DNA of 64,000 nt, taken from assembly GCF_041248615.1 (NCBI RefSeq), contig NZ_CP158426.1. One strand, given 5' to 3'. Shown piece by piece: positions 27,871 to 36,941 of this stretch. Position numbers and translations under genes: made by a program. Source of the DNA: Escherichia coli (GTDB lineage: Bacteria > Pseudomonadota > Gammaproteobacteria > Enterobacterales > Enterobacteriaceae). Numbering within the stretch: the stretch's first letter is position 1; every line of letters begins with the position of its first letter. The notes beneath the pieces are model-generated. The model did no database searches. It saw only the letters and a program-made list of their open reading frames with translations, and had not been told where the DNA came from.

Positions 27871-28479
27871 ATGAAAATCAGGCTACTGATCCTCAGCCTG
27901 CTGGTTTCTGTGCCTGCATTTGCCTGGCAACCACAAACCGGCGACATCATCTTTCAGATCTCTCGCTCATCGCAAAGTAAAGCGATCCAACTGGCGACCC
28001 ATTCCGATTACAGCCACACCGGTATGCTGGTGATACGCAACAAAAAGCCCTACGTTTTTGAAGCGGTCGGCCCGGTGAAATACACCCCGCTCAAGCAGTG
28101 GATTGCCCATGGTGAAAAGGGCAAATACGTTGTTCGCCGCGTTGAAGGCGGACTGAGTGTTAAACAACAGCAAAAACTGGCGCAAACGGCAAAACGTTAT
28201 CTCGGCAAACCGTATGATTTCAGCTTCTCGTGGAGCGACGATCGCCAGTACTGTTCGGAAGTGGTGTGGAAGGTTTATCAGAATGCGCTGGGAATGCGCG
28301 TGGGCGAACAGCAGAAGTTGAAAGAGTTCGACCTGAGCAGCCCACAAGTTCAGGCAAAGCTCAAAGAACGTTACGGCAAGAATATTCCGCTTGAGGAAAC
28401 GGTGGTCTCGCCACAAGCCGTTTTCGATGCGCCACAACTCACCACTGTTGCCAAAGAATGGCCGCTGTTTTCGTGGTAA
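27871..28479 (+). CDS. yiiX: Putative lipid-binding hydrolase YiiX (permuted papain-like fold), 202 aa
   Basis: ORF 27871..28479 with signal peptide MKIRLLILSLLVSVPAFA. Confidence 0.85.
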   Translation: MKIRLLILSLLVSVPAFAWQPQTGDIIFQISRSSQSKAIQLATHSDYSHTGMLVIRNKKPYVFEAVGPVKYTPLKQWIAHGEKGKYVVRRVEGGLSVKQQQKLAQTAKRYLGKPYDFSFSWSDDRQYCSEVVWKVYQNALGMRVGEQQKLKEFDLSSPQVQAKLKERYGKNIPLEETVVSPQAVFDAPQLTTVAKEWPLFSW

Positions 28480-28623
28480 TGGATGATAAAAAAAATAATT
28501 CCCGCCGTAGTCTGTTTGTTGCTTTGTAGTTGCACGACCTTTCCGCAAGCTGTCGCTCCGGTAAACGGTGATGCCTCCAATTAGTTGAATTAAGGATATA
28601 ATACTCGCTTTTAAGGTTGTTTC

Positions 28624-28896
28624 ATGGTCACAGTTAACCTTCATTGTCCCCGTTGCCAGTCCGTTCAGGTTTACCGTCACGGGCAGAACCCCAAAAGACA
28701 TGATCGATTCCGCGGCCGTGACTGTCACCGGGTATTTCAGCTCAGTTACTGTTACGAGCCCCGTAAACCAGGAGTTAAAGACCAAATCGCTGAAATGGCT
28801 TTCAACGGTGCCGGGGTTCGCTATACTGCCCTTACGCTGAAAATCGGCATTAATACAGTCATCCGAACTTTAAAAAACTCTCGCCACGAAAAATAA
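28624..28896 (+). CDS. insA: IS1-family InsA-like zinc-ribbon protein, 90 aa
   Basis: ORF 28624..28896; CPRC-x17-CHRVFQ zinc ribbon plus HTH region (GAGVRYTALTLKIGINTVIRTLKNS); roughly 40% identity to canonical IS1 InsA by eye. Confidence 0.75.
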   Translation: MVTVNLHCPRCQSVQVYRHGQNPKRHDRFRGRDCHRVFQLSYCYEPRKPGVKDQIAEMAFNGAGVRYTALTLKIGINTVIRTLKNSRHEK

Positions 28897-28922
28897 CGTC
28901 ATCCCCGGTCGCTCATGCTGAT

Positions 28923-29330
28923 GTGGCACTCATCTGCGAACTTAGTCAGCAATGGAGCTTTGTCGGCAGTAAAGCGCGACAGCACTGGCTCTGGTACGTG
29001 TACAACACGAAAACTGGTGGTGTTCTGGCCTACACTTTTGGCCCCCGGACTGATGAAACCTGTCGTGAACTGCTGGCGCTGCTTACCCTTTTACCATCGG
29101 CATGTTGACCACTGACGAATGGGGTAGTTACGCTAGAGAGTTACCAAAGGAGAAGCATCTGACTGGTAAGATTTTTACTCAGCACATTGAGCGTAACAAT
29201 CTGACCCTGAGAACCCGAATCAAACGTCTGGCCCGCAGAACCATCTGTTTCTCGCGTTCTGTAGAACTTCATGAAAAAGTCATCGGTGCTTTTATCGAAA
29301 ATATATGTTCTACTAATTGGAGTCATCACC
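28923..29330 (+). pseudogene. insB: IS1-family insB-like transposase segment, split across two frames
   Basis: InsB-like sequence in ORF 28923..29108 (EQWSFVGSKARQHWLWYVY) continues in another frame in ORF 29102..29416 (TDEWGSY...RSVELHEKVIG); frame break near 29100; the second ORF reads through the IS end. Confidence 0.6.
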
Positions 29331-29385: not shown

Positions 29386-29709
29386 TTACCTCATTCTGCT
29401 CTTTTTTCTCAAATGACATATATTATATTTTACATCATATTCATAGGCATATGACATTCCCCCGCCCCCCATTATGTCATTGTGGGTTGATGTTGGGCTT
29501 TCATAAAAAAATACATCTTTTTTTGAACTAGCATTAATTATATTTACTTTATATATTAAAATATTTTCTCCATCTGGAAATATTTTAGCCACACAATATA
29601 AAGCAGCTAAATCCGAATTACTTAAAAATATATTGTCATCACTCATAACTCCAGCCATTAAATGACTGGAGACTAAAGCAAGGAAATAACAACATTGTAT
29701 TACCTTCAT
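29386..29709 (-). CDS. Putative Rhs immunity protein, 107 aa, with N-terminal hydrophobic signal or anchor
   Basis: Native ATG at 29709 lies 1 nt after the reconstructed native rhs stop (TAA, 29713..29711). N-terminus MKVIQCCYFLALVSSHLMAGV; AT-rich DNA. ORF-track entry 29386..29769 is extended into IS5. Confidence 0.55.
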   Translation of the reverse strand: MKVIQCCYFLALVSSHLMAGVMSDDNIFLSNSDLAALYCVAKIFPDGENILIYKVNIINASSKKDVFFYESPTSTHNDIMGGGGMSYAYEYDVKYNICHLRKKSRMR

Positions 29710-29754
29710 TTTAATTACTCCCTTGCCTGATAATTGTAACTCCATTCCCTTTAG

Positions 29755-30950
<1,196 letters not shown>

Positions 30951-33900
30951 TTAGCTTTGGGATTATATTTTAGATAGGTGTTATTTGGTGTTCCCAAGTA
31001 ACTACTGTATTCTTTTTTTCCCATTCCATTCATATAAGAATTCGTTAAATCTTTGCTTGAAAAATTTAGACTATCATAAACATCATTTTCTTTTGTTACT
31101 TTATTGCCTTTATCGTCAGAGTAAAAACCGTGAGTGTGATAATCGCCTACTCTCTCTGAACCTTCAGGGCATTTTATATTTCGCAAGTCTACACTATCAT
31201 TATCATTTGAACTTATCGGATTCATGGGGAAATATTCACCTTGCTTCTTACATATTAGCCCACCATATTCTTTATTCTCGTTAATTGATTCTCCATTACA
31301 CATTGCCAATGCAAATATTCCAATATCATCTATATTTTTTGATTTAAATTCATATAATCCTAATGGATCTATATTTGAGATCGGATTCAACGGATACTGA
31401 TAAAAATTCCATCCCCCCTTCAGCCCAATCGGATCCTGAGTGATATACCGCCCCTGCAGCGGGTCATAATAGCGGTGGCGGTTGTAATAGAGGCCGGACT
31501 CCTCATCATACTGCTGACCCGGCAGGCGGATGAGCTGCTGCAGCTGGTGCGGGTTCTCTTCATTCAGCAGGTTGCCCCATTCATCGTATTCTGCGCACCA
31601 TTCTGTTGCCCCTTCCGTGCTGACAAGCGCCAGCGGCAGGCCGCGATGGTCGCAGTGGTACAGGTGGATTTTTCGCGCCGGCGTGTACACCGGGTCCATC
31701 TGGTTTTGTATCTGCTCCACCGTCAGGCCGCACGATGCCAGCCAGCGGCGGCTTTCCTCACTCACCCGGTCAGCCAGGATTTCACTTTCCAGCCGGTCGA
31801 GCATCTGCACCAGCACCGGCGGGAACACCACACTGCCACCGTCTTCACCGCCGGACTGCTGAAGCGCATCCGCCAGGCTGCGGCGCTGCGTTTTCGCCAG
31901 CTCACCGGTGGCAGTTTCAACTCTGATGAGTGGCGTGAAGCTCCCCGGCTGATAAACCGTCTGGATGCGGGTTCTGTCGTTCTGTATTGTGGTCAGCCGG
32001 TCGCCGTCCCAGCCGTACCAGGGCACTTCCGGTTTCCATGACAGCGACATCCAGCCCGTCAGGTCCCGTTCACGCCGCCATACCCGTTTTGCCACCCTGC
32101 GGCCCAGCAGGTCGTAAAGATAGCGACTTTCGACCAGCGGCTCTGCATATTGTGTCCGCGTGTAGTGCACCAGCCGGTGCCGGCTGTCGTAATGGTACCG
32201 GTGAGTCCGCTCATCATCCGTGCGGATAACCCCTTCCGGGATGAGGTCGGTTTTCTCCGTCAGCCTGCCGTGACGGTCATACCGGTAAAGATAGTGCGCG
32301 TCACGGGCGATACGGTTATCCGGCCATGCGCTGAGGGGGCTGTCCGGGTGCAGCTCCGGGTCGGGCAGGCGGTTGCCCGCCGGGTCCGTGGCATACGGGA
32401 TGCGGATATCAAGGTTCGCTGCCGTGGTGTGGACGCCGGTCAGCCTGCCGGTGTCGCTGTAGCTGTAACTCCGGGTCTGGCGCGGGCTGCTGATGCGGAT
32501 GAGTTCGCCGTTGTCGTTCCAGGTGTAATCGCGGTCATACTGCAGGCTGTTCAGGTGCTGGCTCTGTAACTGCCCGGCAGGGGTGTAAGCGGTGGTGAGT
32601 TCATAACGGCCGAAGCTGCGCAGCGTTTCCCGGTGCAGGCGGTCGCGGGTGAAATCCACCAGCGGTGTGTCGCCGAGTTTCATGCCTGACAGCCAGCCGC
32701 TGCCGTAGGTCAGCCATTCCACGGCGGGCAGGCTGTCCGGTATACAGCGGTTCGCCAGTCCCTGCGCGTTGTACGCATGTCTGGTTTCATGCTGCCAGAG
32801 CAGTGCTTCCGTCTGCGGGTGATGCACCGTCTGGCGCTCACCGGTCAGGCGGCCTTTCTCATCATACCCGTAATGCACCGTCACCCGGTGGCCTTCGCTG
32901 AGATGGCTGATTTGTGTCAGCCAGCCGCGTTCGTCGTACCGCCACTGTTCTGCGGTTTCACCATTCACCGTTCGCTGTGTGATGCGGTCTGCTTCGTCAT
33001 AGTGCCAGTGGGTGACCAGCCCCTCATCCTCGCTGCGGATAAGTTTGCCGGTCAGGTCGTGGTGATAACGCTGTGTGCGGCCGTCAAAGCCGGTTTCCTG
33101 TATCAGCCGGTCGAGTACATCGTAACGGAAGGTGGTGTGGCTGCCGTTTTCACTGGTCAGGCGGATGACCCGTCCGGCAGCATCGTATTCCATACTGCGC
33201 GTCAGACCACCCTGCGTGGTACGGATGGCCTTTCCCCACGTATCGTACTGTGTCCCGTTTCTGCTGCCGTCCGGGGCAATGACGGCGGTCAGGTCACCGG
33301 CGGCGTTGTATTCATACCGCGTTTCATGGCCCTGCATGTCTTTCACCGCAATTAACTGTCCACGGCTGTCGTATGCGCGGTACTGGCTCAGGCCTTCCTC
33401 GCGGTGCACCGTCGTCACCTGACCAAAACGGTCATGGTCATAGCGGGTTACATAACCGGAACAGTCGGTAAAGCTCAGCAACTGACCGTAACGGCTCCAC
33501 GTCATGGTTTTCCGGCTGCCGGTGGCATCTTCCGTTGCGCAGGGGAAGTCACTGTGTGGATTATCATAACGGTAGCGGGTGATATCGCCGTCAGGGGCGG
33601 TTTCCTGAATCAGACGGCCGGATTCATCATATTCCCGGCGTATTTCCAGCCCGTCAGTCCCGGTGGCTGACGTTAACTGGCTGTGGTGGTTATAGTAAAA
33701 CGCCGATGCCCTGCCATCCGGCGTGGTGATGCGCGTGATGAGGCCCGTCACCACATCCGGGCTGTATTCTGTTGTCCGGCCTGCGGCATCCGTCTGTGCC
33801 TTAAGCCTGCCCACCGCATCAAACTGACTCTGCGTGACGCTGCCGTCCGCGTGTTCCTTTTTCACCACCCGCTTCAGCCCGCCTTCGCCCTGCGTGTGCA

Positions 33901-34092
33901 GCACTTCACGGCGGTCCAGACTGTCGGTGATGGTGATGCGGTCTTTCTCATACTGATACGTGTAGCTTAAGCCTGCCGGGTTTAGCTGCTCTGTCACCCG
34001 CCCGTCGCTGTCGTAACGGTAACGGATTTCCGGCCGGCCCGCGCGGTGGTTGAACTGCACCCCAAATGTTGGACATAATCTGACATCTGAAG

Positions 34093-34623
34093 GTGCAGTT
34101 TATGAAACATTCATTTGAAGTAAAACTTGCCGCTGTAAATCATTACCTGGCTGGTCATGCAGGCATCATTTCTACGGCAAAACTCTTTCAACTTTCTCAC
34201 ACCAGCCTCTCACACTGGATTAATCTTTTTCTTCTTCACGGTCCTCGGGCACTGGATTGCAGACACAAGCGTAGCTATTCTCCTGAAGATAAACTTTGCG
34301 TGGTTCTTTATGCTCTCGGGCATTCTGAGTCTCTACCCCGGGTAGCTGCCCGGTTTAACATTCCCAGCCACAACACGGTTAAAAACTGGATAAAAGGCTA
34401 CCGCAAATCTGGTAATGAGGCCTTTATCAGGCGCAGGAAGGAGAAAAGCATGACCCGTTCTGATGATACCCATGAAAACGAGGCAAACATGACGCCGGAA
34501 GAGATGAAGAATGAGCTGCGTTATCTTCGCGCAGAAAATGCATATCTGAAAGCCATGCAGGAGCATCTCCTGGAAAAAAAGCGCCAGGAGCTGGAGAAAA
34601 AACGAAAGTCATCCGGAGCCTGA
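34093..34623 (+). CDS. IS3-family transposase OrfA (HTH), 176 aa
   Basis: ORF 34093..34623; HTH and leucine-zipper-like region; slippery heptamer near its 3' end. Confidence 0.85.
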
Positions 34624-34727
34624 GGTGCGGACACTGCCAGTCTGACCTGTTAAAGGCTGCAGGGCTGGCCAGAAGCACGCTGTACTACCAGCTGTCACTG
34701 CAGAAGGCTAAGGACAAGTATGCTGAT

Positions 34728-36530
<1,803 letters not shown>

Positions 36531-36689: not shown

Positions 36690-36941
<252 letters not shown>

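Follow-up and report, generated by a model that had tools for sequence, protein, structure and literature searches.

The principle that Rhs toxins of type VI secretion systems (T6SS) are accompanied by RhsI immunity proteins was reportedly established by Koskiniemi et al. in 2013. Most characterized RhsI proteins are cytoplasmic and paired with nucleases. Here, we describe a candidate of this kind in a 64,000-nucleotide stretch of Escherichia coli DNA (contig NZ_CP158426.1; "the window" below), where an open reading frame (ORF) on the minus strand, named dsORF-f3, lies at the end of an Rhs element that has been broken by insertion sequences (IS). Like an RhsI gene, it is small and AT-rich, is placed directly after a polymorphic toxin tip, is specific for the type of tip, and also occurs beside orphan tips; it differs in that its product has a signal-like N-terminus and its partner is a JAB domain. 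On strong comparative support, the ORF very probably encodes the antidote (immunity protein) of this JAB-tip toxin, and we consider it likely, with the mechanism proposed below, that it is the intact rhsI-type gene of an Rhs element that ~40% of complete E. coli genomes carry between rpmE and yiiX.

The family of the toxin tip, DUF4329, was described as Tox-JAB-2 by Zhang et al. 2012 (PMC3482391), who proposed that the JAB domains of toxins are nucleases, like RadC, and assigned the immunity family Imm-NTF2-2 (PF15631) to Tox-JAB-2. The same study reports that Tox-JAB-1 is partnered by Imm65, a lipoprotein that has a signal peptide (PMC3482391). Later papers label DUF4329 a nuclease or RNase, citing Ma et al. 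2017. The locus itself has appeared in an in-silico study of enterohemorrhagic E. coli (EHEC) as RhsB/RhsBI (z5488/z5489), where z5488 has DUF4329 and z5489 (57 aa) is the proposed immunity protein (PMC7216683); z5489 of strain EDL933 differs from the ORF of the window in being frameshifted to 57 aa, which was not recognized as such in that study. A 2025 paper on "RhsFI" concerns a different locus, ECs0604.

The Rhs locus and its downstream gene

The Rhs element of the window lies on the minus strand between rpmE (36690..36902) and yiiX (27871..28479) and is broken twice. One of the two interruptions is an IS5-family element of 1,196 bp (29755..30950; ISKpn26 in RefSeq), flanked by copies of TTAG at 29751-29754 and 30951-30954. 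Deleting ISKpn26 and one TTAG in silico gives a continuous rhs 3' end, whose frame closes with ..KGNGVTIIRQGSN-TAA at 29713..29711. One base past this stop, on the same strand, the ATG at 29709 (TAA-A-ATG) opens an ORF of 324 nt (107 codons and a stop), which starts MKVIQCCYFLALVSSHLMAGV and ends at 29386. The Shine-Dalgarno sequence GGGAG (29722..29718, minus strand) stands 8 nt before the ATG, within the final rhs codons; as ISKpn26 inserted upstream of it, it has survived. Over 870 nt, the rejoined sequence shows 100% identity to the locus as it stands unbroken in E. coli 7/2 and numerous other genomes; in strain 7/2, the intact order is rpmE, rhs (1390 aa), dsORF-f3, IS1H, yiiX. The features of the locus are listed below by window coordinates and strand.

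28563..29330, minus: IS1H, frameshifted; left boundary approximate (IS end read from sequence; RefSeq)
29386..29709, minus: coding sequence of dsORF-f3 (107 codons, then TAA at 29386-29388), whose product is the candidate immunity protein of the Tox-JAB-2 tip; identical to WP_001521836.1
29389..29652, minus: predicted mature domain of ~88 residues, built of some short strands, a helix and an antiparallel set of four strands; carries the invariant GGGG loop, YxY, a single Cys and ..M-R/K at the C-terminus
29653..29709, minus: predicted Sec-type signal peptide, about residues 1-19 (n-h-c pattern read from sequence)
29711..29754, minus: final 14 codons plus TAA of the native rhs toxin tip, severed by ISKpn26 (in-silico excision; BLAST against strain 7/2)
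29718..29722, minus: Shine-Dalgarno sequence GGGAG (read from sequence)
29755..30950, plus: ISKpn26 (IS5 family), transposase 29823..30803; TTAG target duplication
30951..31354, minus: bulk of the C-terminal Rhs toxin domain that follows DPLGL; DUF4329/Tox-JAB-2, JAB/MPN fold
31355..34041, minus: GC-rich rhs core (YD-repeat shell, PxxxxDPxGL end), middle piece of the disrupted gene
34042..35482, plus: IS1397 (IS3 family), splitting rhs; boundaries approximate to a few bases (ORFs, RefSeq, alignment gap against the intact locus)
35483..36530, minus: rhs N-terminal piece (PAAR-like/DUF6531 region), beside rpmE (RefSeq; BLAST against strain 7/2)

The ORF is identical over its 324 nt to RefSeq WP_001521836.1, "RHS element protein dsORF-f3", and stands at the same genomic place; it is the classical E. 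coli Rhs "downstream ORF" in the order rpmE-rhs-dsORF-IS1H-yiiX. Because RefSeq already names it, the gene is not a new discovery: dsORF-f3 is already known and named, with a function so far only assumed. It was found in 2,170 of 5,426 complete E. coli genomes, always chromosomal and with a median of one copy. Compared with these intact loci, the gene of the window is the same but the toxin gene upstream of it is broken by two IS elements. A family hidden Markov model (HMM) run against 854 six-frame segments of the window matched dsORF-f3 only (E = 2e-23). Pfam gave no match for the ORF even at E <= 10, NCBIfam has no model for it, the name "dsORF-f3" occurred in no searchable paper, and PDB sequence searches with the ORF, the profiles of its family and the toxin returned nothing meaningful.

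What remains of rhs in the window is 97-99% identical to the intact copy of strain 7/2 by BLAST, and the segment 34041..30951, comprising the core piece and the toxin tip, reaches 98.97% identity over a 3,091-nt match. For this region in NZ_LT599825.1, RefSeq gives two rhs pseudogene pieces split by IS1397, ISKpn26, an intact dsORF-f3, a frameshifted IS1H and yiiX.

Linkage of the gene to JAB-type toxin tips

A word-indexed search with the ORF returned E. coli variants only. When 1.8 billion representatives were scanned in full with HMMER, relatives appeared at 48-50% (P0045-47) and 29-33% identity (P0051, P0052), and a profile search added relatives from Salmonella and Hafnia at 27-35% identity. 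Down to 27% identity, the relatives stop at the same residue, in ..K-x-x-M-K/R, and share an invariant GGGG-x-x-Y-x-Y and one Cys. The relatives at 48-50%, which come from metagenomes, adjoin Rhs tips that are 71-73% identical to the tip of the window, and both loci checked for their junction (L005, L006) show TAA-A-ATG/GTG, as in the reconstructed window locus. The Salmonella relatives come directly after an orphan DUF4329 tip of 162 aa, which belongs to an array of Rhs orphans beside vgrG; those of Hafnia overlap an orphan DUF4329 tip by 4 nt, and at two loci where no toxin gene was called (L009, L010) the upstream DNA still holds DUF4329 remnants. Across the homologous loci, tip and ORF are separated by 1 nt (TAA-A-ATG/GTG) or overlap by 4 nt. 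The pairwise identities of toxins and ORFs rise and fall together (Pearson r = 0.90 over 15 non-independent pairs), with the ORF diverging faster. This pattern of linkage is the genomic signature that would be expected of a cognate immunity protein.

An earlier, sequence-only reading of the window had proposed a cognate immunity gene tightly coupled to the rhs stop. Each element of the native stop at 29713..29711 and the ATG at 29709 was reproduced by our in-silico excision, and the spacing, then called typical of rhs-CT/rhsI pairs, recurs at the homologous loci. The AT-rich composition said to be shared with the toxin domain is borne out by GC contents of ~26-28% for the ORF and 31-36% for the tip, against 60-69% for the rhs core. 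Its description of the 107-aa ORF as intact also stands, as frame, start codon and Shine-Dalgarno sequence are all whole and identical to the commonest full-length alleles. For the proposed immunity role itself, the comparison with rhs loci elsewhere that it had suggested placed homologs of the ORF directly downstream of homologous DUF4329 tips in every locus examined. The outcome it had named as refuting, an ORF missing or unconserved beside such tips elsewhere, did not occur, and the conserved linkage and co-divergence support a probable cognate pair.

One ENA metagenome contig (L004:530-1027) carries the same tip and ORF, but the last five codons, corresponding to window 29386-29400, are replaced, giving an ORF of 165 aa that begins MKAIQ and departs from the window ORF after HLRKK. 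We considered whether the 107-aa ORF might be a 3'-truncated remnant of this longer form and rejected this, since homologs at 27-50% identity all end like the window ORF; it is the 165-aa form that is derived, because the homologs end ..K-x-x-M-K/R at the position of the window ORF. The contig also has a further small ORF downstream (MAEVKRDYAKMM...) and an rhs core end of a different subtype (GWNLYTYPLSPVNSMDPLGL), and it appears to carry a 3' end that was recombined within a different host element. In Salmonella enterica (L014:29-13675, GCA_900456075.1), a full Rhs gene with a TseH-like tip and Imm58 precedes a series of five or more orphan tip/immunity modules, among them the DUF4329 tip with a dsORF-f3 relative and another with Tox-WTIP. 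A match of only 74% to the ORF in E. coli HH97 (L002, NZ_CP116409.1 38690-50875; hit H70), where 4 kb between rpmE and yiiX are unannotated and G/C homopolymer-like, was left unused, as the whole rhs region is ridden with homopolymers and resembles an assembly artifact or poor polishing.

The toxin tip

The 147 residues past the DPLGL cleavage motif match Pfam DUF4329 (3.7e-16), and their predicted structure is a confident JAB/MPN fold in which the E..HxH..S..D motif is conserved. The tip agrees with the E, H[ST]H, S, D motif of Tox-JAB-2/DUF4329: across the toxin family, E29 and H73-T-H75 never vary and S95, S99, and D102 hardly do. With these residues conserved, the tip domain looks catalytically competent. 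Its nearest structural neighbors are isopeptidases, not nucleases.

A candidate marker of exported partners, a disulfide between Cys35 and Cys62 of the toxin, was tried and abandoned, since the toxins of Janthinobacterium, Luteimonas, and Arsukibacterium lack the pair while their partners bear signals. The pattern does hold in the enterobacterial clade and in the toxins paired with Imm-NTF2-2.

Fold of the ORF product

The mature part of the ORF product (88 residues) was modeled from 12 sequences (pLDDT 75.6, pTM 0.64) as short N-terminal strands, one helix and four antiparallel strands, that is, an alpha+beta domain resembling cystatin/PepSY; confidence in the model is no more than moderate, and the fold is a common one. 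Its structural neighbors (search score in brackets) were a designed cystatin fold (8.1), copper amine oxidase domains (6-7.7), the PepSY proteins YpeB (6.8) and YpmB (5.7), M4-peptidase propeptides (5.5-5.6), and cystatins, other peptidase inhibitors and many NTF2-like proteins (about 5). A Foldseek search against AFDB returned uncharacterized members of the family itself and several PepSY-annotated proteins. A small helix-on-sheet domain of a kind that often inhibits peptidases would be compatible with direct blocking of the JAB toxin.

Two known families were compared with the ORF. PepSY (PF03413) occurs in the propeptides of M4 metallopeptidases and in YpeB/YpmB. The ORF of the window gave no match to the PepSY model, its partner has a JAB fold and not a thermolysin-like one, and the similarity is that of a common small fold; one of 26 members of the wider superfamily described below did match Pfam PepSY (2.8e-5). 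Imm-NTF2-2 resembles dsORF-f3 in serving the same toxin family, in its size (~100-110 aa), in an NTF2/cystatin-type alpha+beta fold and, in two examples, in a signal-like start, but the two have no sequence relationship. That the ORF is itself an Imm-NTF2-2 protein was ruled out because (i) it has no Pfam match to PF15631, (ii) hhalign against an E. coli PF15631 protein beside another DUF4329 toxin gave a probability of 0.3%, and (iii) the Y,W signature of Imm-NTF2-2 is absent, the ORF having instead the GGGG loop, YxY and C-terminal K/R.

N-terminus and site of action

The N-terminus of the ORF product, MK / VIQCCYFLALV / SSHLMA followed by GV, has the n-h-c layout of a Sec signal as read from sequence, and it has no lipobox. 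The N-termini of its homologs are unrelated in sequence and more hydrophobic, with small residues at -3/-1, as in the relatives from Salmonella (MKFFIFIFLLCKVCSA|F) and Hafnia (MRNILFFIILLTVYEA|T) and in P0045 (MKIRILRFLLMFFIMLMGSYA|T). The hydrophobic character that had been suggested at this N-terminus, as a signal or anchor, is kept across these relatives, the sequence is not, and the h-region of the E. coli protein is borderline. In total, signal-like N-termini were counted in ~24 of ~35 related lineages, with ~11 lacking them, by a simple hydrophobicity rule and inspection by eye; the rule picked the wrong start codon in a few loci. A signal-like N-terminus was likewise present in the two Imm-NTF2-2 proteins examined, which partner other Tox-JAB-2 tips in E. 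coli (L022) and E. albertii (L066).

Exported immunity proteins normally imply an extracytoplasmic target, which sits badly with the nuclease/RNase label of the toxin. For the dsORF-f3 clade, we therefore lean toward a periplasmic site of action. Compared with the exported, Tsi/Tai-type immunity proteins of T6SS effectors that act in the periplasm and with Imm65, dsORF-f3 differs in having neither a lipobox nor sequence similarity to them, and a third of its family is signal-less.

A wider family of partners

A one-genome-per-species scan provided 52 further DUF4329 loci. An HMM seeded from the dsORF-f3 alignment was iterated over all 2,305 stop-to-stop ORF segments that 70 loci offered on their two strands. 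At convergence it held 53 segments from 51 loci, all of them on the toxin strand and nearly all directly after the DUF4329 ORF, while the opposite strand of the 70 loci gave zero matches. As an internal control, this specificity of position and strand argues against profile drift. Two of the matches (L039, L072) are second copies further downstream and presumably represent orphan modules.

The superfamily so defined spans Proteobacteria, Acidobacteriota, Myxococcota, Planctomycetota, and a spirochaete. Its members have in common a Gly-containing loop and a C-terminal Lys/Arg, the latter in 25 of 26 aligned members, which suggests that the free C-terminus may have a functional role, possibly in the toxin active site. 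In the alignment of 26 diverse members (A5), this Lys/Arg sits two residues after an aromatic/aliphatic position. Tandem two-domain partners of 170-190 aa occur at seven loci (L035, L037, L038, L041, L042, L043, L045; Acidobacteriota, Myxococcota, Terriglobia, Planctomycetota, Holophagales), some with a hydrophobic N-terminus and others with none. Single-sequence hhalign comparisons of the family with the partners from Burkholderia, Limnobaculum, and PAAR-DUF4329 gave probabilities of only 0.15-4.5%; the Burkholderia and Limnobaculum partners are linked to the family by the iterated HMM only, and the PAAR-DUF4329 partner was not recovered.

Other observations at the locus

Three IS elements lie within 8 kb at this one Rhs element, and the cut made by IS1397 falls between the PAAR/DUF6531 N-terminal part and the YD-repeat shell of rhs. 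IS1H is found 55 bp past the ORF stop in all E. coli loci inspected (7/2, O157:H7, AMSHJX01, 2014C-3051, WCHEC020032); the insertion must therefore be old, and it marks the right-hand edge of the element today. In WCHEC020032, an additional IS1F lies inside IS1H. A 62-aa "hypothetical protein" of RefSeq, WP_316527337.1 (window 30785-30973, plus strand), begins in the end of ISKpn26, continues antisense to the rhs tip and is almost certainly an artifact ORF created by the insertion. A 2.2-kb contig from a metagenome-assembled genome (MAG) labeled Lachnospiraceae (L026, SFGN01000258.1) is 99% identical to the E. coli rhs tip and dsORF-f3 and is most likely an E. coli contig mis-binned in a Firmicutes MAG.

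Proposed mechanism

In the native element, dsORF-f3 would be translationally coupled to the rhs stop through TAA-A-ATG, with its Shine-Dalgarno sequence inside the final rhs codons. The 107-aa preprotein would lose a Sec signal peptide of ~19 residues and release a cystatin/PepSY-like domain of ~88 residues into the periplasm, where it would bind and block the cognate Rhs C-terminal domain (JAB/MPN-type, zinc-hydrolase-like, DUF4329/Tox-JAB-2) delivered by a neighboring cell. We consider neutralization by direct binding of the toxin quite probable. In the strain of the window, where the toxin gene is dead (IS1397, ISKpn26), the ORF could at most serve as an orphan defense against E. coli that still fire the toxin.

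Several observations weigh against this mechanism. The literature search found no experiment on the toxin/dsORF-f3 pair. The h-region of the ORF is only moderately hydrophobic, with a best 9-residue Kyte-Doolittle mean of ~2.1 (computed by hand), which is borderline. Signal-less partners make up about a third of the lineages (Burkholderia, Duganella, Limnobaculum, Myxococcota, Planctomycetota, Terriglobia, Methylumidiphilus, Xenorhabdus, and Zophobihabitans), so that a periplasmic site cannot be general for the family, and the nuclease/RNase label given to Tox-JAB-2 in the literature would need a cytoplasmic immunity protein. In all three loci examined for this (O157:H7 7636, WCHEC020032, and 2014C-3051), rhs is full length (1390-1394 aa) and dsORF-f3 is flagged as frameshifted by RefSeq; cells evidently tolerate the toxin gene without dsORF-f3, at least while rhs is silent. 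Finally, a consensus scan of the minus strand from ISKpn26 to the ATG found no sigma-70-like site.

Beyond the single locus, we tentatively offer a joint reading, to which we give somewhat less than even weight: dsORF-f3 would belong to a large unnamed PepSY/cystatin-like superfamily, lacking a Pfam model, of mostly exported proteins that are the usual partners of Tox-JAB-2 in several phyla; since the two other immunity families of JAB toxins are exported too, the JAB polymorphic toxins would be (iso)peptidases acting in the periplasm, not nucleases/RNases; and the Gly-rich loop and C-terminal Lys/Arg would plug the JAB groove.

Alternative explanations

The likeliest alternative is that the ORF is a functionless relic in this strain: it would be intact only because too little time has passed since the IS insertions, separated from the promoters of rhs, unexpressed, and decaying as it does elsewhere. 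We regard this as doubtful. The junction between ISKpn26 and the ORF occurs in 1 of the 5,426 complete E. coli genomes (NRZ14408, NZ_LT599825.1), and the loss of the toxin is therefore recent. The sequence-only reading had taken the intact ORF as consistent with a retention of immunity after loss of the toxin, which as a statement on evolution finds no support here: the insertion is unique and recent, and the reverse state, a full-length rhs with a frameshifted dsORF-f3, is present in ~30-40% of carriers. Decay elsewhere is visible in 17 of 40 hits sampled at even ranking steps, which are 322-323 nt long and frameshifted in an A-run (nt 186) or in a T-run lengthened to T9 by A198T. It is visible also in the protein clusters from short-read assemblies, where ~640 shortened members (P0015, 256; P0017, 343; P0033, 43) stand against 1,460 in the full-length cluster P0002, and in further alleles of dsORF-f3 broken by IS5 or IS1. 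Either half of the pair thus decays in different lineages, as expected if rhs is usually silent. The frameshift-prone runs lie at window 29512-29530 (ORF nt 180-198; compared in L003, L019, and L020), with T9 in the common A198T allele.

Expression has a bearing on the relic explanation as well. At another EHEC rhs locus, transcription of the tip and its immunity gene starts at a promoter within the 3' portion of rhs (PMC7618764); if the same applies here, that promoter is now behind 1.2 kb of IS. When the tip and the stretch upstream of the ORF were scanned for consensus promoters, shuffled sequence yielded at least as many. The lack of a sigma-70-like site before the ATG is, however, compatible with read-through or IS-derived transcription. 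Against the relic explanation, the frame, start codon, and Shine-Dalgarno sequence of the ORF are whole, and the family has been maintained for long, down to 27% identity with the same ends and motifs. The homopolymer frameshifts could be slippage-driven decay or switching, or partly assembly error, and some of the frameshifts counted may be homopolymer errors of long-read assemblies.

A second alternative keeps the immunity role but places it in the cytoplasm or at the inner face of the membrane, where the N-terminus would not be a cleaved signal and the target would be a JAB toxin that degrades nucleic acids. This is what the nuclease proposal for JAB toxins (PMC3482391) and the later RNase label for DUF4329, as given in papers that cite Ma et al. 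2017, would lead one to expect, and it could accommodate both the third of partners without a signal peptide and the moderately hydrophobic h-region in E. coli. We nevertheless find it improbable, since some two thirds of the lineages have signal-like N-termini, with small -3/-1 residues, despite their unrelated sequences, the other immunity families of JAB toxins, Imm-NTF2-2 and Imm65, are also exported, and the nearest structural neighbors of the toxin are isopeptidases and not nucleases.

PepSY propeptides both inhibit M4 peptidases and help them to fold, and Rhs tips fold inside the Rhs shell in the cytoplasm. That the ORF product is an accessory factor of the toxin, such as a PepSY-like folding helper or a secreted partner, would agree with the PepSY-like fold and would equally predict strict linkage to the toxin, but it is very improbable, as immunity genes are typically recognized by the features seen here (small, placed immediately behind the tip, diverging faster than the toxin, and present beside orphan tips in the Salmonella and Hafnia arrays), and an exported helper could not reach tips that fold in the cytoplasm.

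Implications

For annotation, the gene is ordinary: a named and widespread Rhs downstream ORF at a locus whose standard form is recovered by in-silico excision. What emerged beyond annotation is how widely the unnamed family of partners extends, that its modeled fold is PepSY/cystatin-like, and that a signal for export recurs in it. The pairing with JAB tips far outside E. coli gives a family of uncharacterized proteins a firm genetic role, and the presence of exported partners in all three immunity families of JAB toxins calls into question the repeated "RNase" label for DUF4329. If the joint reading is true, possible targets of the JAB toxins are the stem peptides of peptidoglycan or the linkages between Lpp and peptidoglycan. 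Since lineages of E. coli differ in which half of the pair is broken, the locus is also a natural test of whether Rhs immunity is under selection or drifts while rhs is silent.

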